A stretch of DNA of 56,087 nucleotides from IMG/VR virus record IMGVR_UViG_3300022074_000048, positions 1 through 56,087 of that record. The stretch is one strand, 5' to 3'. This document shows positions 5,415 through 41,874 of this stretch, piece by piece. Positions within the stretch are counted from its first letter, which is position 1, and every line of letters begins with the position of its first letter. The translations under genes and the position numbers were made by a program. Source of the DNA: a virus (lineage: Duplodnaviria > Caudoviricetes). The notes under the pieces are model-generated. The model was given only the letters and a program-made list of their open reading frames with translations. It searched no databases and was not told the origin of the DNA.

Positions 5415-6265
5415 GTTCTAGCTGCTCTCACCATACCGTCTCTATATGTATCGGTGTTCTCTATAGCCTCGCCATAATTTTTAAGTCTAGAAAGTGATTC
5501 GACAAATCTACTTTGATAAAGCGCAAGAACATCCGGCTCACCCTTCATAAACGTATAGGCTTCTATCAGGCTACCATAAAGCATTGCATTTGGAGCATTT
5601 ACACTTAGCCATGTCGTTGTTGTATCGGCTGAAGTAGATACAACTGTACCTGTAGCACCGCTAGTGCTACCTGTAACTGTTTCACCGACTGTAAAATCTG
5701 TGCTTGGTATAATTACCCTAGACGTGGTTGACGTAAGAGCTTCACTAATTGTTGTGGTTGCTCCGCTAGTACCGCCTGTAATAGTCTCGCTATCAACGAA
5801 AGTCCCGCTTACACTACTCAAAGTTAGAACAAAGGAACTAACAGTAAGACTATTGGGTCTGTGAAAATAATGAAGCTCTGCGCTATAAGCTGCATCTGGC
5901 GTAGGGGCTAAGATAAAATTTTGAAAATCATAAAGAGCATAATATTTAGGTGTCCCTGTCGTAGCTGCATTAGGATTATATTCTTGAATAAAGTTTACAT
6001 CTCTATGCAATAAAAATTCTTTAGAGCTTGAATTAGTTACAGATAAACTAAAAGACGCCAGATAATCAGTAGGAACCGCTAAAAATTGATTATTTAAAGT
6101 CGTCGTACCGGACACATTTTTTCGGAAGTAATCAAGATCAACAGCTTTTAAAATCCTTTCTTCAGCAGATGTAATAAAATCTACTAAATGAGAAACGAAC
6201 GCTGTTTCTTGATTTTCGGTGTAATCTTTTATAGATTTTTTTAAATTCGTATAAGTATAACTCAT
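5411..6265 (-). CDS. Head-tail adaptor protein with an inserted beta-repeat domain
   Basis: GTPKYYA, LAPTPD, TTWLS.NAP.A.LYGSL.EAY.FMKGE motifs; insertion of two F..[SG]ET.TG.TSGAT repeats. Confidence 0.7.
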   Translation of the reverse strand: MSYTYTNLKKSIKDYTENQETAFVSHLVDFITSAEERILKAVDLDYFRKNVSGTTTLNNQFLAVPTDYLASFSLSVTNSSSKEFLLHRDVNFIQEYNPNAATTGTPKYYALYDFQNFILAPTPDAAYSAELHYFHRPNSLTVSSFVLTLSSVSGTFVDSETITGGTSGATTTISEALTSTTSRVIIPSTDFTVGETVTGSTSGATGTVVSTSADTTTTWLSVNAPNAMLYGSLIEAYTFMKGEPDVLALYQSRFVESLSRLKNYGEAIENTDTYRDGMVRAART

Positions 6266-6573: not shown

Positions 6574-7230
6574 TTAAGTCAATATCCTGGGAACTAATTG
6601 AAGGCTAGTACGGTCTCTATCTTCTGATGCCGCCCTCGCGAACTCTTCGTCATATATAGATTTTAAAACGCTTACTCGATCAGGAGCCACCTTTATAGAT
6701 AAATAATAAGCCAATCCTGCAACTAAACAGGGGTAAAACCTAAAAGGTACATCGAAATCATTTGTGTAAGTATCTGCGTCATCAATTCGAACTAACCGAT
6801 AATAAATAATTTGATCAGTGGAGTTTTCAGGAGTTTGCCATAAATATAAAACAGGATTAACTTGTCGATCAACAAAAAATTGAGAAGGTTTACCAGTGCT
6901 TGTTTTGTTGGGCAGATTTAAATAAGCACTTCGTGATATTCTATCAACGGATGTGTCTGAACCACTCCGGCGTATAACCATCTCTAGAATATCAATAGTA
7001 TCTATTCCGAGTGTATAATTGGCTGTCCCAGCGGTTAGAGTTGTAGTAACTTGTTCAACAGTAAACAAATTAATACCACGATTAGCCCATTCTGCTAACA
7101 TAATATTTAGAGAGCGTCGAGCACTTCTTAAAGAATATCCTGTTTTTCCTTCACCCCCACAACGTTCGTAGGCTTCTTCTATAGCCTCAACAACGTCGAT
7201 ATTAAAATTTCGGGAGTCTGAAACAGCCAT
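6574..7230 (-). CDS. Head-tail adaptor / tail tubular protein A-like
   Basis: IEEAYERCG, ARRSLN...EWANRG, G.PSQFFVDRQ, PFRFYPCLVAGLAYY. Confidence 0.7.
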   Translation of the reverse strand: MAVSDSRNFNIDVVEAIEEAYERCGGEGKTGYSLRSARRSLNIMLAEWANRGINLFTVEQVTTTLTAGTANYTLGIDTIDILEMVIRRSGSDTSVDRISRSAYLNLPNKTSTGKPSQFFVDRQVNPVLYLWQTPENSTDQIIYYRLVRIDDADTYTNDFDVPFRFYPCLVAGLAYYLSIKVAPDRVSVLKSIYDEEFARAASEDRDRTSLQLVPRILT

Positions 7231-13290: not shown

Positions 13291-13770
13291 CTATACGGAC
13301 ATAATGTCGCGGGGATCAGAAATAGTAGCAATAATCTCGTCATCGTTAAGGATGCGAGGTTCTGCCCCATCTATTTTAAAACGAGAGCCAGCATATCTGC
13401 CAATAAGTACCCAATCGCCCTCTTTGCACCAAGGACCGTCTGGAAACTTATCTTCATCAGCGTATGCGTCTGGACCTAAACTAACCACATAACCTACGTT
13501 TGTAGCAAGCCGATTACGCTCAACCGTTTCGTCCGCAAGAAGAATACCACCTTTAGTTTCTTTTGATGGTGTATACGGAAGGATTAAAATCCTCCAACCT
13601 GTGGGTTTTGGAAGTTTATCCAAAGCCGAGGTTGCGTTTTCATTTTCTTGATTTGGCAAAAATTGTGCCGCATCAAAGCGGTTTGGCGATACTGCCTCTG
13701 TAACAGTTGCAGTTCGGCGTTCCTTTTCCTTTTCAAGGATGTGGTCAGGAACGAATAACCTTTTAGTCAT
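13291..13770 (-). CDS. groES: Co-chaperonin GroES (Cpn10)-like protein
   Basis: P.GWRILI, ETKGGILLA mobile loop, VVSLGP, GD.VL..RYAG, ILNDDEIIA. Confidence 0.9.
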   Translation of the reverse strand: MTKRLFVPDHILEKEKERRTATVTEAVSPNRFDAAQFLPNQENENATSALDKLPKPTGWRILILPYTPSKETKGGILLADETVERNRLATNVGYVVSLGPDAYADEDKFPDGPWCKEGDWVLIGRYAGSRFKIDGAEPRILNDDEIIATISDPRDIMSV

Positions 13771-26540: not shown

Positions 26541-26629
26541 TGGTGCGAACGGTGGGACTCGAACCCACACGACCCGTGTCTGTCGACGGATTTTAAGTCC
26601 GTTGCGTCTACCAATTCCGCCACGCTCGC
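26541..26629 (-). tRNA. tRNA-Leu (anticodon UAA)
   Basis: GCGAGCG/CGTTCGC acceptor stem plus ACCA, D-loop AATTGGTA, ACGGA-CTTAAAA-TCCGT anticodon arm, long variable arm, GTGGG-TTCGAGT-CCCAC T arm. Confidence 0.97.
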
Positions 26630-28224: not shown

Positions 28225-28505
28225 GCGGCAACGTGCTGACTTGCACTATCATAATAAGCGTTTTCATGCATCTCGACTAAACGCTTACGATAAACCTCAG
28301 CAAGGCTTAAATAACTTACAGCATTACCACGAAACACTGCTACGTGGTTAAAATGCCAATGATAAAAATGATCTGTAATGCCGCTACGACGTCTTTTAAT
28401 ACAATACTCAACTTGATCTTTAGCGTATTGAATATTAGCGTAGTAATTTTTCATCATGTGGGCGTAGTTTTTAAGAGTAGAATCAAACTCATATTTAGCA
28501 CTCAT
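28221..28505 (-). CDS. Hypothetical protein
   Basis: AAAGGA RBS. Confidence 0.6.
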   Translation of the reverse strand: MSAKYEFDSTLKNYAHMMKNYYANIQYAKDQVEYCIKRRRSGITDHFYHWHFNHVAVFRGNAVSYLSLAEVYRKRLVEMHENAYYDSASQHVAA

Positions 28506-28532
28506 AATAGTATCCTTTCTTAGTGCAAGAGG

Positions 28533-28745
28533 TTAGTGGGACGACTCGACATCCTCTACTAAACCGTGGGCGATAAGGTACTCACGATAAAAGTCTAGAC
28601 CCTCAGCGTTATCCTCGAAGTGCGGCTCGAAACCACTACCGATAATAGCAGAAGCTAGAAGATCAGCCTCAGGTCGATCCTCCTCTCGCAATGCTCGCCA
28701 TAAACAAATGGAAAGCGACTGCGATACTTTAATAGATGAACTCAT
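28533..28745 (-). CDS. Hypothetical protein
   Basis: AGGAG RBS; AT-rich upstream region. Confidence 0.6.
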   Translation of the reverse strand: MSSSIKVSQSLSICLWRALREEDRPEADLLASAIIGSGFEPHFEDNAEGLDFYREYLIAHGLVEDVESSH

Positions 28746-28820
28746 GACTGCTCCTATAATTTACTTTAGTAATTTATTATAGGGGGCAAAATTTAGTCAA
28801 TAAACTACAAAAAGCTGAAA

Positions 28821-29189
28821 CTACTCGTTGTAATATTCTTTACCGCTCGTTATCCACGCTTCAACTTCATCGTCAGTCATGCTGTCGAAGTCCGGTTCGA
28901 CACGGTGAAGAGGCATTGGTTTACGTTTCTTTTTAGGTTTCGGAGCGGCAGTTAATGTTCCCGCTGTATACCCGTTACGGTGTGTTTGTTTCTTTGCTCC
29001 GTAAGAAATAATTTTTTCTTCTGTATGGATTAATAACCCGCATCGTTTACATTTACGTCGACGTCTTAGAATTTCCCCGTCTTTTCTACTATCAACAACA
29101 GTAGTCATCTCAAACGTATGCGTTTTACACGGGTTGGGTTGAGTAAGCTGACTCGTCACCCCTCGTCCACCCTCTTGTGCTTTCGGCAT
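28821..29189 (-). CDS. NrdR-like zinc-ribbon protein (start uncertain)
   Basis: T.VVDSR....I.RRR.C..CG....T.E matches the NrdR N-terminal ribbon; no ATP-cone. Confidence 0.7.
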   Translation of the reverse strand: MPKAQEGGRGVTSQLTQPNPCKTHTFEMTTVVDSRKDGEILRRRRKCKRCGLLIHTEEKIISYGAKKQTHRNGYTAGTLTAAPKPKKKRKPMPLHRVEPDFDSMTDDEVEAWITSGKEYYNE

Positions 29190-31131
29190 GTTTTATCACC
29201 TTTTCCATTTCTTTTGCGTCACCCCAGTTCGGTCCTAAATCAACATCCACTTTGATCGGTACACTAAGTTCAACGCACTCCTCCATAATATCTTTGATCT
29301 TTTTGATTTGTTCAGGTGACTCGATTGAAAAATCAAGTTCGTCGTGAACTTGAATATGAGGAACGATACCCTCAGCGTATAACGACTGCATTGCTTTTTT
29401 AGTCATATCAGCCGCACTACCTTGAATCAGCCTATTCATGGCCTTATGAGTAAATGCTCTTTTGATTGCGTTGCCGTATTCTGCGTATGCCGTCTTATGG
29501 TCCATAATTTTTCGTGTGCCAAATTGAGCTGGTTCCCATTTATCAAATCGACACCGCCGTCCTAAGAGCGTACGAATACTTCCTTGTTTTGAAGCCCTCT
29601 GTACTGCCCGTTCGGATAGAGCTTTTACAAAAGGAACACGGTCGTGGTATTGAGAAAATAACTGTTTACCTTCATCTAGTGTCAGCCCGAGACTGTCGGA
29701 TAACTTCGTAACCCCCATAGAATAAAATAACCCGAGGTTGATATTCTTAGCTTGTTTACGCGGTATACCGGCCATGTCCGCTACGATCTGGTGGAAGTCG
29801 GCATCGTCCTGTTGAAAGGCGTCTACGGCGTCCTGTGCGCCCCTAAGACCCATCATATGGGCGTAGTGTACCACGATCCGTGGTTCCTGTTGCGAGTAGT
29901 CGAAAGCCCCCCATTGGCACCCTTCTTCAGGAATAAATAACGAACGAATTTTTGTTCCTATCTCCGGATCACGGGCGGGTACTTGCTGAAGATTCGGATT
30001 AGAATAACTAAAGCGTCCTGTTACCGTACCACCGTCATCTGAGCGCAAAGGATGTAATTCAGCGTGAATACGACCATCCACTTGGTTAGACATTATCATT
30101 CCGTCAATGAATGTAGTCCGCGCTTTATTCATCTTCCGCGCTTCTACAATCAACTTAGGCATATCGTGTTTATGAGATTCTAGCCAACTTTGTTGAAAAG
30201 AAGGAGAGCCAAGATCGGTTCGGGGGTATTCTATATTCAACCCATCAAATGCTTCCTGGATAGATTTATTAGCCCATACTTCAACGTTTTTGCCACAAAG
30301 TTTTTTTATTTGTTGAAGAGAGGCTTCTTCTTTAGCTCGAAACCATTTAGAGAGTTCATCAGCTTTATCTAAGTCTACTCGTACCCCGCGCCAACGCATC
30401 TCAATAAGTAGAGGCGTAATAGAAGATTCAAGATCAAAGATACTCCATAAGTCTTGCCGAGTCATTTCTCCCTTTTGCCATTCCCAAAGTTTAAGGGTAA
30501 GCAAAGCGTCTTGTTCTGCGTATGGACCTACATACATGGGGGGTAATTGATGTAACCCCCCTTTCGCATCGACATTCCAAGCTTCAGCGGCATCGCGCAA
30601 AAGGGACTCATCTTTTCTTTCTTGAAGATAGCTTTTACCAAGCGCATTAAGAGCATAACTAAACCTGTTTTCATCAATCAAAGGGGCAGACACCATTGTG
30701 TCAATGAGTTTGTTGCCGGACAAGGTAATACCCTCTCTGCGCATCCACCCAATATCATAGGAAGCGTTATGGCAAACGATATCAGCACCACCGTCGATTT
30801 GTGCTTGTAACCAATTTTTAACGAGCTTTTCATTTAAGTTGCCTCCGGCTTCATGTTTAACAGGTAAATAACCTGACCAAGATTCCGTAGCTACCGCGTA
30901 CCCTACAACGTGGCCTTCACCTCGCGCCCAACCTGCACCCTTCTCCTTTAGGGAAGGGTCTCGAGTTTCTAAGTCAATACATATTTCTTTAGCTTTGGTT
31001 AAGTCGGGAAGAACTTCTGGTGGTGTCCAATCACTATCAGGGGTAAAAAGAGGTTGTTGAATCGGGTTTTTTGGCATAGCTGGCTTCTTATCAGGTTTTA
31101 TCTGATTAGAGCTTACTATGTTATTAGTCAT
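29125..31131 (-). CDS. polA: DNA polymerase family A (3'-5' exonuclease plus polymerase)
   Basis: ExoI IDLET, ExoII HNASYD, ExoIII YAEQD, TVTGRFS..NPNLQQ, motif A DYSQQEPR, motif B RKQAKNINLGLFY, motif C VHDEL; start likely ATG 31131 or 31077. Confidence 0.95.
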   Translation of the reverse strand: MTNNIVSSNQIKPDKKPAMPKNPIQQPLFTPDSDWTPPEVLPDLTKAKEICIDLETRDPSLKEKGAGWARGEGHVVGYAVATESWSGYLPVKHEAGGNLNEKLVKNWLQAQIDGGADIVCHNASYDIGWMRREGITLSGNKLIDTMVSAPLIDENRFSYALNALGKSYLQERKDESLLRDAAEAWNVDAKGGLHQLPPMYVGPYAEQDALLTLKLWEWQKGEMTRQDLWSIFDLESSITPLLIEMRWRGVRVDLDKADELSKWFRAKEEASLQQIKKLCGKNVEVWANKSIQEAFDGLNIEYPRTDLGSPSFQQSWLESHKHDMPKLIVEARKMNKARTTFIDGMIMSNQVDGRIHAELHPLRSDDGGTVTGRFSYSNPNLQQVPARDPEIGTKIRSLFIPEEGCQWGAFDYSQQEPRIVVHYAHMMGLRGAQDAVDAFQQDDADFHQIVADMAGIPRKQAKNINLGLFYSMGVTKLSDSLGLTLDEGKQLFSQYHDRVPFVKALSERAVQRASKQGSIRTLLGRRCRFDKWEPAQFGTRKIMDHKTAYAEYGNAIKRAFTHKAMNRLIQGSAADMTKKAMQSLYAEGIVPHIQVHDELDFSIESPEQIKKIKDIMEECVELSVPIKVDVDLGPNWGDAKEMEKVIKHAESTRGWTRGDESAYSTQPV

Positions 31132-31537
31132 CTTGACTACCCCTACCGCACATCTCAGCGTCAATAAGAAACAAGTAACGACGCAAGTCTCGGATATCGT
31201 CCAGGATACCTTCAGGGCGTCTGTCCTCGTCCATAGCTGAGAAAATATCGTAGCTATGCCCTAGAACCTGTTTTTCGATACGATCCCATTTACGAGCCGC
31301 CATCATAAAGGCACCCACACCGCCGCGCTGTTTCCAACTATCGCCATAAGACTGCTCAGCTTTATGAAGCTCGTCGGCATCCTCTATACCAAGACACATA
31401 ACCCGATTAATAATCGCGCTCCGAGGCTCATCGGTAGCGTAGTTCGCACCCTCTAACAGTTTACGCTTCATAAACTCCTCATGGCGTTCTTGTTCTATTT
31501 CTTTCTTTCTAGCCATTCTACACAAGCCTTTCTCCAA
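31124..31537 (-). CDS. Nucleotide-modification-associated (Nmad1/DUF1599, MazG-like helical) protein
   Basis: SYGDSW..RG..G....ARKWDR...DDIRDLRRY; start may be ATG 31516. Confidence 0.7.
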   Translation of the reverse strand: MEKGLCRMARKKEIEQERHEEFMKRKLLEGANYATDEPRSAIINRVMCLGIEDADELHKAEQSYGDSWKQRGGVGAFMMAARKWDRIEKQVLGHSYDIFSAMDEDRRPEGILDDIRDLRRYLFLIDAEMCGRGSQDD

Positions 31538-32538
31538 TCTGACGCTTCTATTTCACGAGCTTTATCAATAGCCTCGTTAATCATTTGTTCTTTCCAGAGC
31601 CACCACGCTTCGACCATAGGTATTGCAGTCTTCGGAAAGATTTGGTTTTGGTATCCCAAAAAGGACTCACCCTTGTGGAGCCAATCGAAGAAGAGACAGA
31701 CTTCAACGTCGAACTCTTCCCATTTATCGACGAGCGGGACGGGTTGAAGCCCATACGCTTCATAAGGGTCTGGATGAATCCCTTGGGGAAGTTTTTCATC
31801 GAGTGGCCTCCATACATCTAAATATACATGAGGGTTATTGCTGACTTGATAATAACGTCCAAGCCCCATTCCCATACAGCTGGCTAGATATTCATGAACC
31901 ATACTAAAGTGCACAGCGTTCGCACCGTACATACCCCAGATTAGATCATTGGATCTATTCGTTACAGTCATGTCTAAATAATATTTATTCTGACGTTCCT
32001 GAGGAGGACGGGTTTTATCTCCGAAATACTCACCCCAATGGGCAACCGGACGACCGCGTAAGAAAACTTGTGTATTGCACGGAACGTCCTTAGATGAAGA
32101 ACCAAGGTCTTGGGTACAATCCCACATCTGAAGTACGGCGCGACGGTCTAATGGGTTCTTACGCAATAAGTCGATAACGGTAGATAATTGGTCGCGCCCA
32201 AACCATTCAGTCCAGCGGTAGCCATACGCACCGTTTACTAAAACACCATCATCCGAAAAGTCCGCCATCTTCTTAGCGAACATCGTTAGCGTTTTTAGAT
32301 CTTGCCGACCCGCGATCATCCACAGCCCTTCGATAAAATGAAAGAAGGGGTTACAGTTACGTTCCGCACTAAACAGAACACGCTCATTCGGTCTTTCGTA
32401 AATAGTCGTAAGTGGTGTCGGAAACGACAACACAGGACCATTGCGGGAGTCTGTCTCTAAAAGAGCTTGGTCTTCTCGCAAGTTCATAACAGCTACTTGA
32501 AATACCTCGTTGACATTTACACCGCGTATTACTTTCAT
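31495..32538 (-). CDS. Thymidylate synthase homologue, probable dUMP hydroxymethylase
   Basis: SRNG, RRAVL.MWD, catalytic KDVPCN, NRSNDLIWGMYGANAVHFS (Asn specificity residue, i.e. dUMP), NN.HVY. Confidence 0.85.
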   Translation of the reverse strand: MKVIRGVNVNEVFQVAVMNLREDQALLETDSRNGPVLSFPTPLTTIYERPNERVLFSAERNCNPFFHFIEGLWMIAGRQDLKTLTMFAKKMADFSDDGVLVNGAYGYRWTEWFGRDQLSTVIDLLRKNPLDRRAVLQMWDCTQDLGSSSKDVPCNTQVFLRGRPVAHWGEYFGDKTRPPQERQNKYYLDMTVTNRSNDLIWGMYGANAVHFSMVHEYLASCMGMGLGRYYQVSNNPHVYLDVWRPLDEKLPQGIHPDPYEAYGLQPVPLVDKWEEFDVEVCLFFDWLHKGESFLGYQNQIFPKTAIPMVEAWWLWKEQMINEAIDKAREIEASDWRKACVEWLERKK

Positions 32539-33362
32539 GGATATCTCCCTCGTGGTGCGCCTTCTCCGTTACGCACTCGTTCGTATTTATCAAACTCGCA
32601 AAGACTATGTTCGATATCCCGCATTTCTAATTTAGGCAAAAAATCTTTTGTTAAATGCAAGGGAGACATACTTAATAAGTCTCTCATTTCTGAATTAAAA
32701 TTATGTTTACGACTTTTAAAGTTCAGGGGTCTACCGTGTATACGGTTCAAGCCTCGCATGGCTCCAGGACCAGCATTAGCCCAAGTATAAATATCATCGG
32801 CTGAATGCAATAAATGTGTATGACGTAAATCAGTAATTAATTCATATGACATAAACGCTCCTAGGTACGGAAATTGCATAAACAAGTTCCAAGAACCACG
32901 GAGGTTGTTCGAACGGATATCATTGGCGAGTTGTTCGCGTTGGGGCCAGATACGGTTTACGCACCAAATCACCCCATCGACTTTATCCATCCCGTCAGGA
33001 GTTTTAATTATGTACCCACCCGTTACATATTTAGATTGCTTTTTGATTTCTTCCCGAGCAACCTCTGGGTTCCAATCTATATGTAAATTATTAGCGAGAA
33101 GAGTTTCACCTGTTTGGATAAGATTAAACCAACGAAAAATAACAGTTGCCATAAGAACAGCATCGTTATCTTTCAAAGGGTCGCGCATATTTTCCCTAAA
33201 CCAAACGGTGGTCTTGTCGTTCTCTCTAAAGGGATTAGTAAAGCGATAGGTCTTTAAAATCTCATCATCTGTCCACTGCTGGCGGGAGAGGCCCATATTC
33301 TTCTTTAGAAAAATACGATGCCTCTCCTCCATCCACCAAAAGAACCTTTCTATTGGTTCCAT
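32535..33362 (-). CDS. aGPT-Pplase1 / 5-hmdU DNA kinase helical-domain protein (stand-alone)
   Basis: F...ERH.I, WTDD.IL..YRFTN..RE.D.TT, FRWFN, G.FM.YE..TDL, GPGA.RGL, EH.LCEFDKY.R. Confidence 0.85.
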   Translation of the reverse strand: MEPIERFFWWMEERHRIFLKKNMGLSRQQWTDDEILKTYRFTNPFRENDKTTVWFRENMRDPLKDNDAVLMATVIFRWFNLIQTGETLLANNLHIDWNPEVAREEIKKQSKYVTGGYIIKTPDGMDKVDGVIWCVNRIWPQREQLANDIRSNNLRGSWNLFMQFPYLGAFMSYELITDLRHTHLLHSADDIYTWANAGPGAMRGLNRIHGRPLNFKSRKHNFNSEMRDLLSMSPLHLTKDFLPKLEMRDIEHSLCEFDKYERVRNGEGAPRGRYP

Positions 33363-34201
33363 TACTTCTTCCTCATAATCCAGTTTACATTATTAGCTGT
33401 TTCTGGATACGCAGTTGCGAGGATTACACGTTGCCAATGTTTATCAAACCGTCCCTCGATATCATCAATAACGTGTTGAGGCCAACGTAAATTAGCGCGG
33501 TGATTACCCTTAAAGTTATTCATTTGGGTAAACGTTCCGTAATGTTTTTCGATAACGAAATACTTTTCGAGGAGTTCTTTGAGTTCTTCATACCCCCATT
33601 CGTAGATGTGGTCTTTTGGCAGAATGTCGTTAGACCCATCGTGGTTCGGCGTCGAGACATACGCAATGCCGTTTGAACGGATTTTACGTGCGGCGGCTTC
33701 GATCCATGGCTCAATAAACTCTCTCCCCATGTGTTCAATAACTTCAGTTGTCATAAAAACATCTATCGACTCGTCTTCTATGGGGGGCTCAGGATCAATA
33801 GTTAAGTCCTGTAAAACGATACGACCTTTATTACCTGACATAGTTTGAAACCATTTATGTTCTGTAACGGGTAAATCGTCGTCCACCCACCAATCTTCTA
33901 AACAAGCAGGATCAATATCCATACCCGTATAGCTATTAACAATCTCAGCCTTACGAGAGACAAAGGCTTTATAGAGATAGCGCAATGTCCAAACTTCCCC
34001 GCAACCTATTTCAAGTATATCTACAGGTCGATCAAGTTTTTTAGCACGTTCCATAATCAGCTGACCCATTTTACAAAAACGACTGATGTGCGCCAGCTCA
34101 TCAGGTCGCCAGTTAGCCAGCGTACCCGCTGAAGCAATGTCCATACGGGTGTTCTTAGAATTATTCGCGTTTACCGCGAGTTTACGACGAATAGATGCCA
34201 T
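33362..34201 (-). CDS. Class I SAM-dependent methyltransferase
   Basis: ILEIGCG, GMDID, TEVIEH, VSTPN, DHIYEW; AGGAG RBS. Confidence 0.9.
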   Translation of the reverse strand: MASIRRKLAVNANNSKNTRMDIASAGTLANWRPDELAHISRFCKMGQLIMERAKKLDRPVDILEIGCGEVWTLRYLYKAFVSRKAEIVNSYTGMDIDPACLEDWWVDDDLPVTEHKWFQTMSGNKGRIVLQDLTIDPEPPIEDESIDVFMTTEVIEHMGREFIEPWIEAAARKIRSNGIAYVSTPNHDGSNDILPKDHIYEWGYEELKELLEKYFVIEKHYGTFTQMNNFKGNHRANLRWPQHVIDDIEGRFDKHWQRVILATAYPETANNVNWIMRKK

Positions 34202-34225
34202 TTATTTCTCCTAATAAAACTGGGT

Positions 34226-34316
34226 GGGGGAAGCTAACACTAAGGCTCAGGTACTTGATGTATTAACCAAACTGGCAAGGAACGCTTTTCCCATACGGCA
34301 CAAGCCAACTTCCCCC
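34226..34316 (-). ncRNA. Candidate structured RNA element in the leader of the modification operon
   Basis: GGGGGAAGUUGGC / GUUAGCUUCCCCC 13-bp closing stem (3 G-U pairs) enclosing two smaller hairpins. Confidence 0.5.
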
Positions 34317-34328
34317 GCATCGGTGAGA

Positions 34329-34739
34329 CTAGCTAAGAATACGAATGTATCCTTTGTCGACCATCTCACGATGATAGTGTTTATAAACGCGATCTACAGA
34401 CTGTTTAGACACGAGCTTTCCTTCAAGCTTTTCCCAAAACATACCGATAGTAATCCCGCCTTCAAACACTTCTAGCTCCTCTAAAATATGAAGCATCTGT
34501 TTTGGACCTTTATCTGGATACTTAACAAACTCGATCTTCGCGCCGACTTTTAAACGACCCGTAAGGCTACGACCCGCTTCAGCTTTTTTTACTTCCGCGA
34601 TAACTTCAGGTTCCATTATCTTCTTTCCTTTGTGATATTCAGAAGGCCATTTATTACGAGGCCACGTTTTTTGCTCACCAAAGTCATGATCAGGAGACCA
34701 CATCCATCCGTCTGACGATGTTTGAATCCAGCCGCCCAT
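34329..34739 (-). CDS. Winged-helix-like protein, paralogue 3 (divergent)
   Basis: GGAGG RBS; PKQM..IL..L....G......KQ...RVY.HY..EM...GYI aligns with paralogues 1 and 2. Confidence 0.7.
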   Translation of the reverse strand: MGGWIQTSSDGWMWSPDHDFGEQKTWPRNKWPSEYHKGKKIMEPEVIAEVKKAEAGRSLTGRLKVGAKIEFVKYPDKGPKQMLHILEELEVFEGGITIGMFWEKLEGKLVSKQSVDRVYKHYHREMVDKGYIRILS

Positions 34740-34807
34740 TTCAACCTCCAGTCCTACTTTCTAAAGAGTTTAGACTAGATATAGTGGCAGATAAAGCTCA
34801 AAATAAT

Positions 34808-36313
34808 CTATATCGGGAAATATTTATTGCTCATCGGCTGTACGATATGCAAGTTTTTCTTTGCTCTAGTAAGGCCAACATAAAAGACGCGGGTGTCGTC
34901 GTCAGGATTTTTTTCAAAACTTTTCCATGTACGGTGAGGAATATCAGTAAGGAGTAAAACGTTGTCTGCCTCCCCACCCTTGGCTGAATGTATTGTAGAG
35001 AGATTTATACGAGGCTTCTTAGTGATTTTTTCGCCGCGACGTAAAATAGAAAGAATATAACTGCGCTCTTGAACTGATATAGCATCGAACATATCGTGCC
35101 ATATCTTTGGTTCGCTTAACTCTGCTATTTCTAAGACTTGCGAAAGCGTGAACCTCTGCGTTGGCTCGAAAGTGTCAAAAACCTTCTTCTTCGCGCTCTT
35201 AATATACGCAACAGCTGATAATGCGTCTTCTGGGTATGCAAGATCGCCACGTCTTAATCGCTCCCAAGCTTGAACAGAGGCAACCTTTTTATCAGAGATA
35301 GAAGGGTCGCCTTTACGCTCGAAATATACCCCAAGATTTCTACAATGGGCATCAATCTCATTTAATAAATAATTAGACCGCGATAAGATTAACCATTCAC
35401 CCGTAGATAGGTCCACATGCTCGAAACTTGCTTCGCTGATAACCTGTCCTTCCTCATGCCGAGGGTTCCAAGTTTTATCTGTTCGTGTCTTAACACGGCG
35501 TATAATGCTGTCAGCTACCCGATGAACACTGCGAGGGATGCGGTAACTTTGATCCAAGACACGAGCGTTACCTTTGCTTATCCCTACCAGATGATCTACA
35601 TCTGCCCCTGCCCATCTAAAAATAGCTTGATCGTCATCTCCGGCAATATAGACACGTTGAGAGTTCTCTGCCAACAATTCTACTAGACGCCATTGTAGAG
35701 GGCTGAGATCTTGCGCCTCATCTACAAACATAACATCTAATTTAGGGGACAACTGTTTTTGAACACACAGATCTAACATATCTGTAAAATCATGTAAGCC
35801 CCTTGAATCTTTAAACTGCTTTAACCCTTTTTGAAATCGTTCTAACGCAAACCAGTCGATATCTTCATCATAATGATCGTGCCACTGTTGTCGTAAAGGC
35901 ACACAGCGTAATCGGGATAAACCTTCAATAAAACTCAGGCGGTCGTCTTTCGATAAAAGAGATATTGCACCTTCCTCAAGTTTATTAGAACCTGTAAGCC
36001 GTAAACCCATCAGATCGTTAAACTCATGAAGTGTTTGTCCATTTAAGACAGAGCTTCTGGACAAACCTAACATACGGTGGCATAAAGAATGAAGCGTTCG
36101 GAAATTAGGCAACTCTTTTTGAGTTAGACCAAAACGCTCCATAGTCCTTTCGCGCCCTTCTTCTGATGCTTTTTTAGTAAATGCGAAATAACCTATGCGG
36201 TCAGGGTGTGTACCTCGCTCCATTTCTAGTTCAATTAAATTCAGAATTGTTGTCGTTTTGCCTGTTCCAGGAGGGCCAAGGATAATAGACCACGTGCTTG
36301 AGTCTCTCATCAA
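34808..36313 (-). CDS. SF1 UvrD/Rep-like DNA helicase
   Basis: GPPGTGKT, AFTKKA, TLHSL, DEAQD, GDDDQAI..W.GA, QSYR, STIHSAKGGE, YVGLTRAK. Confidence 0.95.
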   Translation of the reverse strand: MMRDSSTWSIILGPPGTGKTTTILNLIELEMERGTHPDRIGYFAFTKKASEEGRERTMERFGLTQKELPNFRTLHSLCHRMLGLSRSSVLNGQTLHEFNDLMGLRLTGSNKLEEGAISLLSKDDRLSFIEGLSRLRCVPLRQQWHDHYDEDIDWFALERFQKGLKQFKDSRGLHDFTDMLDLCVQKQLSPKLDVMFVDEAQDLSPLQWRLVELLAENSQRVYIAGDDDQAIFRWAGADVDHLVGISKGNARVLDQSYRIPRSVHRVADSIIRRVKTRTDKTWNPRHEEGQVISEASFEHVDLSTGEWLILSRSNYLLNEIDAHCRNLGVYFERKGDPSISDKKVASVQAWERLRRGDLAYPEDALSAVAYIKSAKKKVFDTFEPTQRFTLSQVLEIAELSEPKIWHDMFDAISVQERSYILSILRRGEKITKKPRINLSTIHSAKGGEADNVLLLTDIPHRTWKSFEKNPDDDTRVFYVGLTRAKKNLHIVQPMSNKYFPI

Positions 36314-37848
36314 AAAGGCTCCTCTTTCATATCCGGTAAATCAAAACTTCCTTCTTGTGCAGAAAACTCTGGTATATACCAAACAGTAACGCCCTTGCCT
36401 TTTACGTGAAAGAAATGGTGGCCCCCGCCTAGCTCACGAATCCGTGCCGCTATATTATTACGACCGTAATCACGAAACTGCTGGCGACTAAAATAATCTA
36501 ATAAATCTTTCAAACGGAAATGAGTTTTACCCTCTTCTGTCCAAGGTTTACCCAATAATAATTCATCGCGGCTTTGAGCTTGCGCTCGTTCAGTGCAAAA
36601 CGCTTCTAGTAGTTCCATAAACTGGCCTTCTACTGAAACGTCTTTTGGAACCTCAATTACAGAAACAGCGTCCAATAACTGCTGTATTATATTTCTCCAA
36701 TTATTCTGCCTTTGCGTTGGTGGCATAAAATTAAGCGCATCCATACAACGCCGTTGGAACTTGGTTTGATTTTGTAATTCCTCTGTAGTTAATTCTAAAC
36801 GATGACCCTCAACATCAAGAAACCAGATCGGAGGTTGAGAATCCTGTTTTTGAAGATTACCAAACTGAGGCATACCGCCTGAACTACCTACACCATACTC
36901 ACATGTTCGACAAACAGCAGAGTTACAAAACGCGGCTATAGGCTGATCATTACATTTGTAGTGATAATCCTTATTATTTAGAGCGCGGATAACTGTTAAG
37001 ACTTCTTGCGCACCTAACGGGGGTTTCATAAACTTGAAGTTAAATTCTTCAACCTTACGTTCCCATGTATCCTGGAACTTTTTACGAACAAAAACCCCTA
37101 GATCAAACAGCCCATTATTACGAGTACCTTCTGGAAAGCCCATTGTACAAAGAGCTTTTAAACAAGGTGGTGCACCTTCAAGATCTGGATCAGTCTCAGC
37201 GTCGTTAACAGCTTTAGCTGTTAAATTTTCTAACTCTCGTCGAGTAATCATTTTACTCTTAACGTGAGCTATAAATTCTTCTAAATCTAAGATGCCTTCG
37301 CCTTGGTCGTTATGACAATACCTTGTCGATGTATTACCACCGAAGTACGGCATATTTAAAATATTACCGCGATCCCCTTTTTCTAAGAGGAGCTTCGTTT
37401 GCTTTGGAAATATCTCAGCTGTTCCATAACCAAGAGCTGATGCTATTTCTTTTAACTTACCCTGCATAACAGAAGCGGGTACTGGCTCTTTTACAAAACA
37501 ATAAACATGTGCTCCGCCCGATTTAGAGCGAGCAACAACAAAAGGTAACTCATTTCGTCGAACTAACCGTTCAACAAGTTCATCAAGTTTTAAGGGGTAA
37601 ACATCAATATCTATTGCCCCCCATACGCAAGAATTATCCTCACGAATAGGAACAATGCCAACCGACTCTTTTCCCTCTAAATGATTAGTCCATAATTCTA
37701 TTAATTTTTCATCGCTTATATCTTCCGATATAACTCGATATTGACCTTTTTGTTTTCCTGGACCGTTATCTTCATTTGGGCGATAACAACCATAAGCTAG
37801 TCTTAAACCAGCAAATAACTGAGCAAAATTTTGGGCAAGGGTACTCAT
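36310..37848 (-). CDS. Archaeo-eukaryotic primase (primase-polymerase)
   Basis: WGAIDID, RSKSGGAH, EIFPKQ, N.P; PriCT-like PPCL...EGTRNN.LF; Cys cluster. Confidence 0.8.
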   Translation of the reverse strand: MSTLAQNFAQLFAGLRLAYGCYRPNEDNGPGKQKGQYRVISEDISDEKLIELWTNHLEGKESVGIVPIREDNSCVWGAIDIDVYPLKLDELVERLVRRNELPFVVARSKSGGAHVYCFVKEPVPASVMQGKLKEIASALGYGTAEIFPKQTKLLLEKGDRGNILNMPYFGGNTSTRYCHNDQGEGILDLEEFIAHVKSKMITRRELENLTAKAVNDAETDPDLEGAPPCLKALCTMGFPEGTRNNGLFDLGVFVRKKFQDTWERKVEEFNFKFMKPPLGAQEVLTVIRALNNKDYHYKCNDQPIAAFCNSAVCRTCEYGVGSSGGMPQFGNLQKQDSQPPIWFLDVEGHRLELTTEELQNQTKFQRRCMDALNFMPPTQRQNNWRNIIQQLLDAVSVIEVPKDVSVEGQFMELLEAFCTERAQAQSRDELLLGKPWTEEGKTHFRLKDLLDYFSRQQFRDYGRNNIAARIRELGGGHHFFHVKGKGVTVWYIPEFSAQEGSFDLPDMKEEPF

Positions 37849-37874
37849 ACTTTATCCTTTCTAACGGTGTACAT

Positions 37875-37910
37875 TAAGGGGGGAATGTACGCCGTTCCCC
37901 CCTTATTTTT
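37875..37910. terminator. Strong hairpin between SSB and primase genes
   Basis: TAAGGGGGGAA/TTCCCCCCTTA; the T-tract lies on the plus strand. Confidence 0.6.
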
Positions 37911-37912
37911 AT

Positions 37913-38716
37913 TTAGAAAGGAACTTCGTCGTTCAAATCTTGCTTACTCTGCTCAGTAGCCTCTTCGTCAGGAGATTTAACCTGTACGTCTCCGGCCTTA
38001 ATCTTACTGAGGAATTTAGCACCTTCTTTAGCCATAGAGCCGTTAGTCGTCGGGCCTTCTAAACCAATAGACCAGCCCATCCATGAACCACGGTCGTTCT
38101 GTTCTTGGACCGTTTTCAAACGGTATTTAAACATGAACATGGGTGCGTCTTGTGTTACACCAGCACTATTAACAACACGCTGTTGTAACATTTGAGCGAG
38201 CCACTTACGAGCTTTACCCAACTGAGTAGAAGTCATAGCTATGACTGCTTGTGACCACTCAGTTTCGTTCTCGTTACAAACCATAACAAAAAACTGGGCG
38301 GTCTCCGCAATGTAGTTACCATTTGATAACACCATCTGACCACGATCGTTTTTTGTGCACTGCGAAAGAATATCACGAGAATCGTGTTCAGCTACTTTAC
38401 CGCCCCCTGCTTCACGCGGTGTCCATTCAAGATATTTTTTGTTGTAGTAACAAGGCACAACGATAATACCTTCATCACCATCAACAACTGTATTAAGGAC
38501 GGAGTTATGAATATTACCCTGCTCCGCGCCTTTGATATATTTACCGTCGTTCTTATTCAACTGTGGGCTAAGAGCCTGTAGAATTTGTATGAACGGAATA
38601 GATACATCATCTGGTGTTACTTCTTCTAAACCAGTTCCATAAGCTAACAGTTCATCGTCCATAATTGCGACTGCGCCGCCTTCTGCTTTTACAGCAACTT
38701 CAGTAATTTTCGCCAT
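37913..38716 (-). CDS. Single-stranded DNA-binding protein
   Basis: AGGAGG RBS before ATG 38716; IPF..ILQ.LSPQ, Y.EW, M.STQL..ARKW; acidic tail ending EVPF. Confidence 0.75.
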   Translation of the reverse strand: MAKITEVAVKAEGGAVAIMDDELLAYGTGLEEVTPDDVSIPFIQILQALSPQLNKNDGKYIKGAEQGNIHNSVLNTVVDGDEGIIVVPCYYNKKYLEWTPREAGGGKVAEHDSRDILSQCTKNDRGQMVLSNGNYIAETAQFFVMVCNENETEWSQAVIAMTSTQLGKARKWLAQMLQQRVVNSAGVTQDAPMFMFKYRLKTVQEQNDRGSWMGWSIGLEGPTTNGSMAKEGAKFLSKIKAGDVQVKSPDEEATEQSKQDLNDEVPF

Positions 38717-38726
38717 GGTAATCCTC

Positions 38727-39293
38727 CTATTTAGCGATTTTAGATTTGAAGCCTGAATACAAACCGAATAAGTCCACAGGTATATCTGTGCCCTTTTCCA
38801 TTTGTTCTTTGGCAAATGCCCTCAGGGTCGAATGATGTACTGCTTCTTTGGTGTCGATTTCGATACCTTTAGCTTGCAGTGCTTCTACTGCGAGCTTCCA
38901 TTTATCGTCATTTTTACCAAATTTAGCTGTTACCTCACGTTTAATTATGTCACCAAAACCGTGCTTAACGAGCCACGTGTGGGCCTCGTCAGCTTTAGCT
39001 TTTGTAATGTGTGCGGTAACGAACGGTTCAGCTTTTACCCTAGAGCCATCCGCAAGACGTATCTCTGATACGCCAGCTTCAGCCAAAGCGTCAGGAAGGT
39101 CGTGCTCTTGTACAGAACGCAATTCTTCTTTTTTCGCTTTCAGTTCTAACTCAAGCGCAGTAACCCCGCGCTCCAGTTCGAGTTGTTTATTTGCCAACTC
39201 AGCAATGCGATGTATTTCACCATCGGTTGCCTCGACTGCTAGGGTATTTATTGCCTCGCCCCCGAGGATATCGTCGAGTATGTCTTTATCCAA
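38727..39293 (-). CDS. Conserved replication-module protein
   Basis: TTG start with GGAG RBS; coiled coil, LP..L...G....L.DGS, WL...G.GDIIK, VH.STL.AF. Confidence 0.7.
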   Translation of the reverse strand: MDKDILDDILGGEAINTLAVEATDGEIHRIAELANKQLELERGVTALELELKAKKEELRSVQEHDLPDALAEAGVSEIRLADGSRVKAEPFVTAHITKAKADEAHTWLVKHGFGDIIKREVTAKFGKNDDKWKLAVEALQAKGIEIDTKEAVHHSTLRAFAKEQMEKGTDIPVDLFGLYSGFKSKIAK

Positions 39294-39295
39294 TT

Positions 39296-39613
39296 TTATT
39301 CTCCGTAAAGACTACAGCTTATAGGGATATATAGTTTTTCTTGCCTATCCCATTTCAGCAAGTTTACCTCCCCTTCCAAGTAGTCTGATGCTATCGCAAC
39401 AGTCAAACCTATAAGGGTCGGATCTCCAGAAAGCAAAACGTAATCGCCTTGCTTTATATTCTTTAGCCCCTGATGAATCTGTTCAATCGCCCACTTAGCG
39501 TTAAAACTGATCTGGTAGTTTGGGGGTAATAGAACTTCTATTTCTCCAAATTTTCTGGCAGGGGCAAAATTGTGCTTGCCCGTCTCTTGCACCAGATAAA
39601 CGCTACTGGACAT
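39296..39613 (-). CDS. Small Rossmann-like protein
   Basis: GGAGG RBS; VY.VQE, A.KFG, DYVLLSGDP, LKWDR. Confidence 0.7.
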   Translation of the reverse strand: MSSSVYLVQETGKHNFAPARKFGEIEVLLPPNYQISFNAKWAIEQIHQGLKNIKQGDYVLLSGDPTLIGLTVAIASDYLEGEVNLLKWDRQEKLYIPISCSLYGE

Positions 39614-39677: not shown

Positions 39678-39768
39678 TCCATCATAATCTCATAATCTCA
39701 TAATTTAGTAGTTAACTGTATGTTATAATTGCTAAACTATCCTATGATATAACATATGACATTATGAG
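39678..39768. repeat. Inverted arrays of ATTATGAN 8-mers around an AT-rich core (candidate origin), locus B
   Basis: ATCATAAT CTCATAAT CTCATAAT (39681-39704), then an AT-rich spacer, then ATATGAC ATTATGAG (39754-39768). Confidence 0.8.
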
Positions 39769-40352
39769 AACGATAAGCCGTCGCGGGGTGAAATCGCCTT
39801 TTGAGAAAAATTATCTGCTAGATATTCATTATAGGCGTCGATATAGCGGATAACATTAGCCCGTACCTTCTTTTCCAAAACTTCAATATCCACAGCGATT
39901 TTATCCCGTATGTTTATGTAAACGTCAGCCAAGAGCCAGTTGCCCATGTACATTTGTTCTAAGCAATAAAACAAAAGCTCGATACGATCTGCTATTTTTA
40001 TATAAAGATTTTCACGCCCCCAAGAGGGGACTCCCCCGTGTTCAGATTTCCAACCCATATCTTTCAAAAAACTTTTTTCACGCTCCTCAAGAGCTTTTTC
40101 TAGATCCGGATTAGCCCACTTTACATTAGCAGGTATATCACCTGTAACAACTTCAGGAATATCATGGCGAAGCGCAAACACTAAACCGTCCTTTGATATA
40201 TCTGGAAATAAGTCTAAGAGGATCATAGACAGCCCCCAAGTGTGGGCGGCTACATTTTGCTCTTCTCCGTTCACAGGACGAATGTGCAAACGCCGTATGC
40301 GTCCTGCCATTCGCGTATTATATATTTTCTCGGAAAGAGAGTATTGGCCCAT
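39762..40352 (-). CDS. HD-domain 5'-deoxynucleotidase (YfbR-like)
   Basis: NVAAHT, ALRHD.PE..TGDIP..VK, KIADR.E. Confidence 0.9.
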   Translation of the reverse strand: MGQYSLSEKIYNTRMAGRIRRLHIRPVNGEEQNVAAHTWGLSMILLDLFPDISKDGLVFALRHDIPEVVTGDIPANVKWANPDLEKALEEREKSFLKDMGWKSEHGGVPSWGRENLYIKIADRIELLFYCLEQMYMGNWLLADVYINIRDKIAVDIEVLEKKVRANVIRYIDAYNEYLADNFSQKAISPRDGLSFS

Positions 40353-40425: not shown

Positions 40426-41874
40426 ATGAATTTTAAATTTAAGACCAAACCATATAAGCACCAGCTAAAAGCATTAGAGATTTCTTACCTGAAGAAATCG
40501 TTTGCGCTTCTTATGGATATGGGAACGGGTAAATCAAAAGTTCTTATTGATACGATCGCGTATCTTGACGCAACTGATGAAATTAATTCTGTTTTAATCC
40601 TTGCTCCAAAGGGTGTTTATAAAAACTGGGTCGGTAAAGAAATACCAGCACACTTGCCAGACAGCATTGAACATAAAGTTGCGTATTGGGCTTCGCCGTT
40701 AACCAATAAACATAAAGACGCTATCCGCGATATTTGGCGACCAAATAAATACTTGCATATTTTTGTAATGAATATTGAAGCCTTATCCACAGGCAAAGCA
40801 GAAGAAGTCGCGACTAAATTTATTGCGGCACACGGCGGTTCGACTCTTATTGCTATTGATGAATCCACAGTTATAAAGAACCACAAAGCTCGAAGAAGCA
40901 AGGCGGCAATGAGGTTGTCTAAGCGGTGTAAATATAAACGAATCCTTACAGGGTCTCCCATTACAAAAACACCACTTGATTTGTTTTCGCAGTTTCAATT
41001 TTTAGGAGAAGAATTATTAGGCTTTAAGTCGTATTATGCTTTTTGCGCTCGTTACGCAGACATGATAAAACGTAGTGCGTCTGGAGGTGGTCATCAATAT
41101 AATCAGATACTTGGTTTTAGAAATCTTGACGAACTTACTGAATCAATAAAGCCGCACTCGTACCGCGTTACGAAAGAAGAGTGTCTCGACCTACCTGAAA
41201 AAACTTATACAATGCGAACGATAGAGCTAACTTCAGAACAAAAGAACCTGTACGACCAAATGAAAAAGACCGCTGTAACTTTGTTAGACGACATGGAAAT
41301 GGTTACAGCTAATGCAGTTATTACTCAACTATTGCGTTTACATCAAATTAGTTGTGGTTTTATTAATACGGATGACGGTAATGTGGTTGAAATTAAAAAC
41401 AATCGCATGTCCGAATTACTTGCGATCTTAGAAGAACTAAACGGGAAAGCTATTATTTGGGCTAACTATCGACACGATATCCTGGCTATCAAAAACGAAA
41501 TATCGAAAGTTTATGGACCAAGATCTGTTGCTACTTATTTTGGCGACACTGATGGCGAAGAAAGACAAAATATTGTAGATCGTTTCCAAGAGGACGAAGA
41601 ACTACGCTTTTTTGTTGGACAACCTCGCACAGGTGGGTACGGTTTGACTTTAACCGCTGCATCAACAGTAATATATTATAGTAACAGCTATGATCTTGAA
41701 GTAAGGTTACAATCAGAAGATCGTGCGCACAGAATCGGTCAATCTAATGCGGTTACATACATCGACTTAATCGCGCAAAAAACGGTAGACGAAAAAATAG
41801 TCGGTGCACTTCGGAAGAAGATTAACATCGCAACACAGGTATTAGAAGAAGATTGGAAAAAATGGCTGATTTAA
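40426..41874 (+). CDS. SNF2-family (SF2) helicase
   Basis: PY.HQ, MDMGTGKS, IDES..IKN, LTGSP, LRLHQI, GGYGLTL, QSEDRAHRIGQ. Confidence 0.95.
   Translation: MNFKFKTKPYKHQLKALEISYLKKSFALLMDMGTGKSKVLIDTIAYLDATDEINSVLILAPKGVYKNWVGKEIPAHLPDSIEHKVAYWASPLTNKHKDAIRDIWRPNKYLHIFVMNIEALSTGKAEEVATKFIAAHGGSTLIAIDESTVIKNHKARRSKAAMRLSKRCKYKRILTGSPITKTPLDLFSQFQFLGEELLGFKSYYAFCARYADMIKRSASGGGHQYNQILGFRNLDELTESIKPHSYRVTKEECLDLPEKTYTMRTIELTSEQKNLYDQMKKTAVTLLDDMEMVTANAVITQLLRLHQISCGFINTDDGNVVEIKNNRMSELLAILEELNGKAIIWANYRHDILAIKNEISKVYGPRSVATYFGDTDGEERQNIVDRFQEDEELRFFVGQPRTGGYGLTLTAASTVIYYSNSYDLEVRLQSEDRAHRIGQSNAVTYIDLIAQKTVDEKIVGALRKKINIATQVLEEDWKKWLI

Follow-up and report, generated by a model that had tools for sequence, protein, structure and literature searches.

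A viral methyltransferase with a Hen1-like active-site signature encoded beside a predicted dUMP 5-hydroxymethylase

The window analysed here is the whole virus record IMGVR_UViG_3300022074_000048 (56,087 bases; CheckV completeness 95%), in which nearly all genes are carried by the minus strand. Within it we focused on a class I S-adenosylmethionine (SAM) methyltransferase with Hen1-like motifs, encoded in a minus-strand gene string composed, in order, of an AEP primase, a UvrD helicase, a 136-amino-acid (aa) orphan, the methyltransferase, a PF18723 protein, a thymidylate synthase (TS)-fold protein, a 137-aa protein and a family A DNA polymerase (Table 1). The TAA stop codon of the methyltransferase gene and the ATG of the PF18723 gene share one base (TAATG), and the start of the TS-fold gene overlaps the PF18723 gene by 4 nt. 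In silico analysis of this locus and its relatives suggests that the methyltransferase is a phage-specific tailoring enzyme of a pyrimidine-replacement pathway.

Table 1. Features of the methyltransferase locus, with positions in the window, strand and basis of assignment.
Feature	Positions	Strand	Basis
Methyltransferase, Hen1-like class I SAM, 279 aa (P0001)	33362..34201	-	open reading frame (ORF) and translation, Pfam, AlphaFold2 model
AGGAG ribosome-binding site, 6 nt 5' of the methyltransferase ATG	34208..34212	-	read from sequence
LEIGCG codons (residues 63-68), SAM-binding motif I	33998..34015	-	regular expression, conservation
EVIEH codons (E153, E156, H157), three of four putative metal ligands	33731..33745	-	conservation, alignment to EVIEH of 4xrp_C and 3jwi_A
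STPN codons (residues 183-186), end of beta5	33644..33655	-	conservation, profile alignment, AlphaFold2 model
DHIYEW codons (D197, H198, E201, W202); H198 is the fourth putative metal ligand	33596..33613	-	conservation, alignment to Hen1 DHHFEW/DHRFEW
PF18723 (HMUDK_hel, formerly aGPT-Pplase1) helix-hairpin-helix (HhH)-fold protein, 275 aa	32535..33362	-	
Cys255-Glu256 codons (LCEFDKY) of the PF18723 protein	32595..32600	-	invariance
TS-fold enzyme, predicted dUMP 5-hydroxymethylase, 347 aa	31495..32538	-	Pfam PF00303 (E 1.1e-15), MilA kinship
Conserved 137-aa protein between hydroxymethylase and polymerase	31124..31537	-	kept in related loci
Family A DNA polymerase with 3'-5' exonuclease	29125..31164	-	Pfam
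136-aa protein directly upstream of the methyltransferase, poorly conserved	34329..34739	-	ORF
UvrD-like helicase, head of the same gene string	34808..36313	-	Pfam
AEP primase, head of the same gene string	36310..37848	-	Pfam
HD-domain YfbR-like nucleotidase or dNTPase	39762..40352	-	Pfam YfbR-like (E 3.2e-12); PHROG 7076, dATP triphosphohydrolase (E 2.1e-17)

The initial annotation of the methyltransferase had read the motifs EVIEH, STPN and DHIYEW in its translation and had noted the absence of the catalytic motifs of DNA methyltransferases (DPPY/NPPY and PC). Regular-expression searches of the 279-aa protein bore this out, placing EVIEH at residues 153-157, TPN at 184-186 (STPN at 183-186), DHIYEW at 197-202 and the SAM-binding LEIGCG at 63-68. 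The DNA N6-adenine/N4-cytosine methyltransferase motif [DNS]PP[YFWH] was absent by the same means, as were the PC and ENV features of DNA C5-cytosine methyltransferases, and Pfam gave no PF00145 match. Pfam assigned the protein to the generic families Methyltransf_23 (E 2.5e-9) and Methyltransf_11 (E 5.1e-6), and PHROGs gave no family for it. A lone E..EH arose in 11,486 of 200,000 shuffles of the protein (5.7%), so this motif by itself is weak evidence and it is conservation that carries weight.

When 1.84 billion representatives were scanned in full with HMMER, 323 relatives emerged at E <= 0.001. Across 38 full-length representatives (24-62% identity), residues G66, E156, H157, H198 and G222 are invariant, and at least 90% of the sequences retain each of C67, G68, E153, T184, P185, N186, E201 and E206. 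A second set was composed of 115 distinct family members from viral loci: E153, E156, H157, H198 and P185 are each present in all 115, E201 in 114, and N186 in 88, with Cys at that position in 24. The family also has conserved parts of its own, namely an N-terminal N-x-N-D-S-K-N-T-R segment with H38 and a C-terminal helical part.

The metal ligands of HEN1, as given in the accessible text of the published work, are E796, E799, H800 and H860; the two Glu residues and H800 belong to a short helix located between beta4 and alpha4, and H860 follows beta5. This set agrees with the scheme given in the initial annotation (E-x-x-E-H plus a distal His), and a paper on animal Hen1 describes, in its accessible part, metal dependence as holding across the Hen1 family. 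The AlphaFold2 model of the viral enzyme is a single domain (mean pLDDT 92.1, pTM 0.90), with beta4 at residues 146-152 and beta5 at 174-185; thus, the putative ligands occupy the same secondary-structure places as in HEN1.

A single-sequence search of the PDB with the methyltransferase gave nothing below E 0.18, and a profile built from the 38 representatives was run against all PDB chains. The best single-stretch matches were Hen1 3jwi_A (42.8 bits), human HENMT1 4xcx (41.6 bits), Capnocytophaga Hen1 4xrp_C (41.1 bits) and UbiG (about 43 bits), with further Hen1 chains among the best matches (3jwg, 3jwh and 3jwj of C. thermocellum and Anabaena, 5wy0 of human HENMT1 and 3htx of Arabidopsis HEN1); two plant phosphoethanolamine methyltransferases topped the list only through the summing of two domains of about 29 bits each. 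The Hen1 alignments span all three motifs (EviEH on EVIEH, sTPN on TPN, and dHiyEW on DHHFEW/DHRFEW), and the alignment to UbiG (4kdc/4kdr/5dpm) covers profile positions 56-174 and stops before the distal His motif. Since UbiG scores as high as Hen1, the term "Hen1-like" denotes here a shared subgroup and not orthology. In an NCBIfam scan at E up to 1, no Hen1-named model matched the methyltransferase, and the sole match was UbiG, at 15.7 bits against a membership cut-off of 102.95.

Structural comparison was less discriminating. Foldseek against the PDB returned only generic class I methyltransferases, and in two VIA-align runs HEN1 was tied with CmoM, METTL6, PH0226 and others; HEN1 3htx_D stood in the tied top fold group with the highest identity there (19%), and CmoM (4htf, 8joz) had the highest structural Z (17.5-17.6, likewise tied) at 11% identity. 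Because of these ties, the structure search cannot decide the methyltransferase family. The comparison of a model with HEN1 and UbiG-type enzymes, which had been put forward as a check, thus upheld the class I fold without singling out HEN1, which was tied with CmoM and METTL6. CmoM gave no sequence-level match to the methyltransferase in the single-sequence and profile PDB searches. Moreover, a Pfam scan of the 67 ORFs of this 95%-complete genome revealed no kinase-phosphatase-ligase partner and no RNA-binding domain of the kind that accompany Hen1. With neither a curated model match, nor a Pnkp partner, nor extra domains, the methyltransferase is not a Hen1 orthologue and stands outside the Hen1 orthologous group; it carries the Hen1 active-site signature and, judging by this, would work like Hen1.

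The best solved relative of the TS-fold protein encoded downstream is MilA, a CMP 5-hydroxymethylase (E 9.7e-13), compared with 1.6e-6 for the best thymidylate synthase. Its Cys154 aligns to the catalytic Cys, and its Asn207 occupies the position that is Asp in MilA and Asn in TS (the uracil-specific state). The protein is therefore a predicted dUMP 5-hydroxymethylase.

Relatives of the methyltransferase were compared at three levels. Within the lineage of this record, a relative is encoded by 182 IMG/VR stretches, and 80 loci (50-99% identity) were retained; belonging to one lineage, they were counted as one observation. The PF18723 gene and the TS-like gene are each present in 79 of the 80, the polymerase and UvrD genes each in 77 and the AEP primase gene in 73; the misses that were inspected (L009, L015, L021, L025, L032 and L036) are loci cut by a contig end. 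In a divergent set of 12 dereplicated loci (about 25-30% identity; 143 ORFs scanned with Pfam), a PF00303 gene lies within about 2.5 kb of the methyltransferase gene in nine (L083, L086, L090, L092, L093, L103, L104, L107 and L110), ThyX is adjacent in L129, and L102 and L106 have neither. Recurrent companions in these loci are MazG, dUTPase_2 or NUDIX pyrophosphatases, P-loop kinases and dCMP deaminase, and the replication modules vary (T7-like primase-helicase, Pol III alpha, prim-pol, UvsX). In the 12 loci, Pfam detected no glucosyltransferase family among the ORFs of 100 or more codons lying up to about 5.5 kb away.

Pooling gave 216 loci with a family member (repeated contigs and this record included); their 115 distinct proteins fall into 16 clusters at 60% identity. 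A TS-fold gene is found in the flank of 12 of these clusters, with median gaps of 7 to 1522 bases. The residue that sets base specificity is Asp (cytosine type) in 10 of them, none of which has a PF18723-like gene, and Asn (uracil type) in two, both with a PF18723-like gene: the lineage of this record (175 of 180 loci) and L083. By kinship the Asp-type partners are likewise predicted hydroxymethylases, since that of L086 matches the T4 dCMP hydroxymethylase 1b49 at E 4.4e-45 and that of L090 matches MilA at E 4.1e-23 versus 3.9e-12 for the best TS. What the predicted products of the two partner types have in common is the 5-CH2OH group. In a quick maximum-likelihood tree of 31 members, the contexts with Asn and PF18723 form one clade (SH-aLRT 90) nested among the Asp contexts, which fits a single shift of the pathway from cytosine to uracil, a single event and as such beyond statistical test.

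Some of the divergent flanks have further genes of interest. Those of two related contigs, L092 (1383-5606) and L093 (1245-5373), encode cytidylyltransferase-like, dCMP deaminase, UDP-glucose/GDP-mannose dehydrogenase and NAD epimerase/dehydratase proteins around the Asp-type hydroxymethylase and the methyltransferase, which suggests a possible sugar-nucleotide branch alongside methylation. Uracil-DNA-glycosylase domains adjoin the family methyltransferase twice, fused to a thymidylate-kinase-like P-loop protein in L110 (8627-9538) and to a Pol III alpha subunit in L129 (2057-5812).

The family looks viral and is abundant in ocean viromes. The ten nearest named Atlas clusters all consist of viruses to 95-100%, one of them carrying the automatic name UbiG, and a pattern scan of one genome per species (185,579 species) found two relatives, both on contigs of metagenome-assembled genomes (MAGs; L265 and L266). 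L265, a close relative of the phage of this record with a methyltransferase 49% identical, has the same gene order as this record up to the contig end; it also carries, between the AEP primase and UvrD genes, a 2-oxoglutarate-Fe(II) oxygenase gene (AlkB-like, PF13532; L265:1949-2530), for which this record has no counterpart at that place. Two cultured phages, Stenotrophomonas phage AXL3 and Pseudoxanthomonas phage PW916, encode the methyltransferase together with MazG, a 327-aa P-loop protein, an Asp-type TS-fold protein and a dCMP deaminase. AXL3 DNA resisted 35 of 37 restriction enzymes, and the two that cut it have A/T-only sites, according to the accessible text of PMC7504290; the corresponding text for PW916 reports no test of DNA modification.

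For the PF18723 protein, VIA-align gave a consistent list of HhH proteins; its profile had no meaningful match among PDB sequences, and the Foldseek matches were weak (E about 1). Its Cys-Glu pair is invariant in 19 of 19 sequences and present in 95% or more of the 68 lineage sequences. According to the available text of PMC8989533 and PMC13458397, none of the thymidine hypermodification pathways characterised so far does without a kinase and an amino-acid:DNA transferase (AADT). In the present record, searched over its full length in six frames at E up to 1, we found neither a 5-hydroxymethyldeoxyuridine (hmdU) DNA kinase (PF18748) nor an AADT (PF18724). The tailoring enzymes that the accessible text of the hypermodification papers names are the kinase, the AADT, a pyridoxal-phosphate decarboxylase, a radical SAM isomerase, a flavin oxidoreductase and an acetyltransferase; that text names no SAM O-methyltransferase. 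A marine viral contig (L083:4660-9885) carries a complete hypermodification cluster of overlapping genes, in this order, for a PF18723 protein, an Asn-type TS-fold protein, an AADT (PF18724), the methyltransferase, a dual-specificity-phosphatase-like protein and a 5-hmdU DNA kinase (PF18748), of which the phosphatase-like gene is no part of the pathway as set out in the published text available.

The 5-CH2OH group shared by the predicted products of both partner types, together with the hydroxyl-activating character of Hen1 and UbiG sites, makes it most likely that the methyltransferase O-methylates that hydroxyl. We judge it somewhat probable, from motifs and gene context, that the enzyme, with the help of a metal, O-methylates the 5-hydroxymethyl group, which in this phage would be that of hmdU. 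A hydroxyl acceptor had been foreseen in the initial annotation in two alternatives, of which the first, hmdU or hmdUMP, is favoured by the hydroxymethylase linkage and comparative genomics, and the second, an RNA 2'-OH, now appears unlikely.

Starting from what was observed (invariant motifs, class of fold and linkage of the genes), we infer a pathway whose hydroxymethylase activity, acceptor atom, metal use, product and HhH contact are predictions. The Asn-type TS-fold enzyme would make 5-hydroxymethyl-dUMP, which would be built into the phage DNA. A divalent metal held by E153, E156, H157 and H198 would bind and deprotonate the hydroxyl of the 5-CH2OH group, perhaps chelated together with O4, and the methyl group of SAM would be moved to this hydroxyl to yield 5-methoxymethyl-uracil. 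Relatives encoded beside Asp-type (dCMP) hydroxymethylases would carry out the same reaction on 5-hydroxymethylcytosine (hmC), giving 5-methoxymethyl-cytosine. The translationally coupled HhH-fold PF18723 protein may present 5-hydroxymethyluracil (hmU) in DNA to the methyltransferase, or may do a further step. As to the level at which methylation would occur, the gene order of Asp-type loci, with the methyltransferase among nucleotide enzymes, hints at the nucleotide, and the coupled HhH protein of this lineage hints at DNA. The isoelectric point was considered as a clue to this choice (5.76 for the methyltransferase of this record and 8.77 for its HhH neighbour) and was dropped, as relatives scatter (methyltransferases 4.7-9.62, median 7.07; HhH proteins 5.15-9.88). 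O-methylation as an activation for group transfer, replacing phosphorylation, was set aside on chemical grounds, methanol being no better a leaving group than water.

Several observations weigh against O-methylation of the hydroxymethyl group. The bit score of UbiG equals that of Hen1 in the PDB profile search. Four of the 16 clusters (L102, L161, L106 and L129) have no TS-fold gene in the flank; in the 273-kb record of L102 such a gene lies about 57 kb away, and the records of L161 and L106 are 13% and 10% complete. On a gut MAG contig (L266:1794-4517), a member 35% identical to that of this record lies between ParB_N and a 434-aa radical-SAM-like gene, directly before the terminase and portal genes, and the MAG has no PF00303 match, which puts this member outside the hydroxymethylase rule. 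In L083 the methyltransferase gene is placed inside a full kinase/AADT cluster, so that an appended amino acid is an alternative acceptor. The Cys-Glu pair of the PF18723 protein recalls the essential Cys and Glu of AADTs, as described in the accessible literature, and this protein may itself be an enzyme, with a final base other than methoxymethyl-U. Finally, the restriction data for AXL3 show that its DNA is modified and not what the modification is. A 202-codon frame upstream of ParB_N in L266 was considered as a dioxygenase gene and rejected; it has no Pfam match at E 10, is rich in Cys, Ser and Leu, overlaps an ORF of the opposite strand and is probably not a gene.

The alternative that survives best, although we regard it as unlikely, is that the methyltransferase acts on a group first attached at the pyrimidine C5 methylene, which in this record the PF18723 Cys-Glu protein would install; the enzyme would then either form a methyl ester on the carboxylate of an attached amino acid, in the way CmoM acts on tRNA cmo5U, or N-methylate an attached amine. 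The Cys-Glu resemblance and the composition of the L083 cluster speak for such a route. Ten of the 16 clusters, however, have an Asp-type hydroxymethylase with no PF18723-like gene, and the Pfam scan of seven of these ten revealed no AADT (PF18724); a transferred group is thus not the common substrate of the family. In addition, this genome lacks a kinase to activate hmU for transfer, and the metal tetrad is that of the hydroxyl-activating Hen1.

We consider it very unlikely that the enzyme acts on a protein or on some other small molecule, for example a phenol or catechol as in UbiG, an intermediate of the folate cycle or a nucleotide at a ring nitrogen, and shares only regulation with the nucleotide genes. 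UbiG does score as high as Hen1 (43 bits), is the sole NCBIfam match and gives its name to one Atlas cluster, and class I methyltransferases of this fold accept many kinds of acceptor; yet the family is essentially confined to viruses and tied to hydroxymethylase genes of both base types, and the NCBIfam score for UbiG (15.7) is far below its cut-off. We know of no use of quinone methylation in phages. Least credible of all is a true Hen1-type RNA 3'-terminal 2'-O-methyltransferase that would protect phage or host tRNA, or further RNA ends, from anticodon nucleases or re-cleavage, its gene position being incidental. In its favour, the top single-stretch hits in the PDB are Hen1 chains, whose alignments take in the three motifs, HEN1 3htx_D has the highest identity in the tied fold group, and the phage has one tRNA gene. 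Against it, Pfam detects neither Pnkp nor an RNA ligase nor any further RNA-repair gene in this genome (95% complete), NCBIfam yields no match to a model named Hen1, the 279-aa protein is one domain without the extra domains of bacterial and plant Hen1, and the hydroxymethylase linkage, which recurs in 12 of the 16 clusters amid unrelated replication modules, is not explained by chance placement.

Returning to O-methylation of the hydroxymethyl group, to our knowledge the tailoring reactions so far characterised for hydroxymethyl-pyrimidines of phage DNA are all either glycosylation or phosphorylation followed by transfer of an amino acid or polyamine. A full-text literature search turned up no paper describing a methoxymethyl-pyrimidine as a natural DNA base, and the predicted product is undescribed. 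The co-occurring domains listed in a 2026 paper on phage thymine dioxygenases include "O-methyltransferases", which the text available does not study (PMC13229309). We tentatively propose, as a possibility that falls short of probable, that a widespread phage-only family makes 5-methoxymethyl-pyrimidines: of U in this marine lineage (with an HhH base-flipping PF18723 partner in place of kinase and transferase), and of C in AXL3-like, pelagic podovirus-like and other phages. If so, the metal-assisted O-methylation of Hen1 would have been recruited from RNA ends to DNA bases, giving a new pair of natural DNA bases, and the Hen1 active site would be a general device to methylate poorly acidic hydroxyls on nucleic acids. 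A methyl ether would then be a third and much cheaper way of masking the hydroxymethyl group, and it might escape not only nucleases and glycosylases recognising hmC or hmU but also those recognising their sugar adducts. An enzyme selectively methylating hmU or hmC is also a possible labelling tool. As two cultured phages carry the family, the predicted product is directly testable there.

Some further features of the record deserve mention. The 137-aa protein, which 77 of the 80 related loci encode, has a strongly conserved core (AE.sYGdSW..RGG.GAFMM.ARK.DR). Pfam gave no match for it up to E 10, and by eye its core bears some likeness to DUF1599/MazG-type all-alpha nucleotide pyrophosphatases. 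The 136-aa protein has neither a Pfam nor a PHROG match, and a homologue is present in only 26 of 82 loci. The HD-domain protein is a candidate, from its family matches, for the removal of canonical dTTP/dTMP. A scan of positions 28500-38500 for promoters and terminators gave a site count not above that of shuffles, and the 5.5-kb region had no megablast match among GenBank phages. A single tRNA-Leu gene (anticodon TAA; 26541-26629, minus strand) is located in a region of small ORFs between a DUF932 gene and the polymerase block. An SNF2-family helicase gene (40426-41874) is among the very few sizeable genes of the plus strand, and a Cpn10/GroES-like co-chaperonin (13291-13770, minus strand; Pfam E 5.2e-12) is encoded between portal-region and capsid genes. 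Two paralogous SU10-adaptor-like genes (5411-6265 and 6574-7230, minus strand) and Pam3 gp32-34-like genes (37913-39613) suggest that the phage is a podovirus built like SU10 and Pam3.

Among the known systems close to this locus is thymidine hypermodification (phages M6, ViI, PaMx11, PhiW-14, SP10 and SH-Ab 15599), in which a TS-fold dUMP hydroxymethylase gene likewise adjoins a PF18723 gene within the replication module and the modification is likewise made on the 5-hydroxymethyl group, as the accessible text of PMC8989533, PMC5889632 and PMC13458397 describes. Unlike those pathways, this genome has neither the PF18748 kinase nor the PF18724 AADT, and a SAM methyltransferase stands in their place. 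Most relatives of the methyltransferase are found in a gene set similar to the T4-type hmC pathway (gp42 dCMP hydroxymethylase, dCTPase, dNMP kinase, dCMP deaminase and glucosylation), with the difference that the methyltransferase holds the tailoring position and that the phage of this record uses the uracil (Asn) type.

As regards the methyltransferase itself, UbiG/Coq3 are O-methyltransferases acting on hydroxyls whose profile score equals that of Hen1, whereas the context of the phage enzyme is viral. CmoM (the E. coli SmtA/YecP-type tRNA cmo5U34 methyltransferase) O-methylates a side chain on C5 of uracil within a nucleic acid; its likeness is at the level of fold only, and dozens of class I enzymes are equally close. 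With Hen1/HEN1 the phage enzyme shares the class I fold with motif I, E-x-x-E-H after beta4 and D-H-x-x-E-W after beta5, but it is without the Pnkp partner of bacterial Hen1, the extra RNA-binding domains of the plant and animal enzymes, and any ligase-activating or double-stranded-RNA-binding domain. It further differs from Hen1 in being phage-specific and tied to DNA-precursor enzymes, and its acceptor is therefore probably the hydroxymethyl group of a base and not a ribose 2'-OH.

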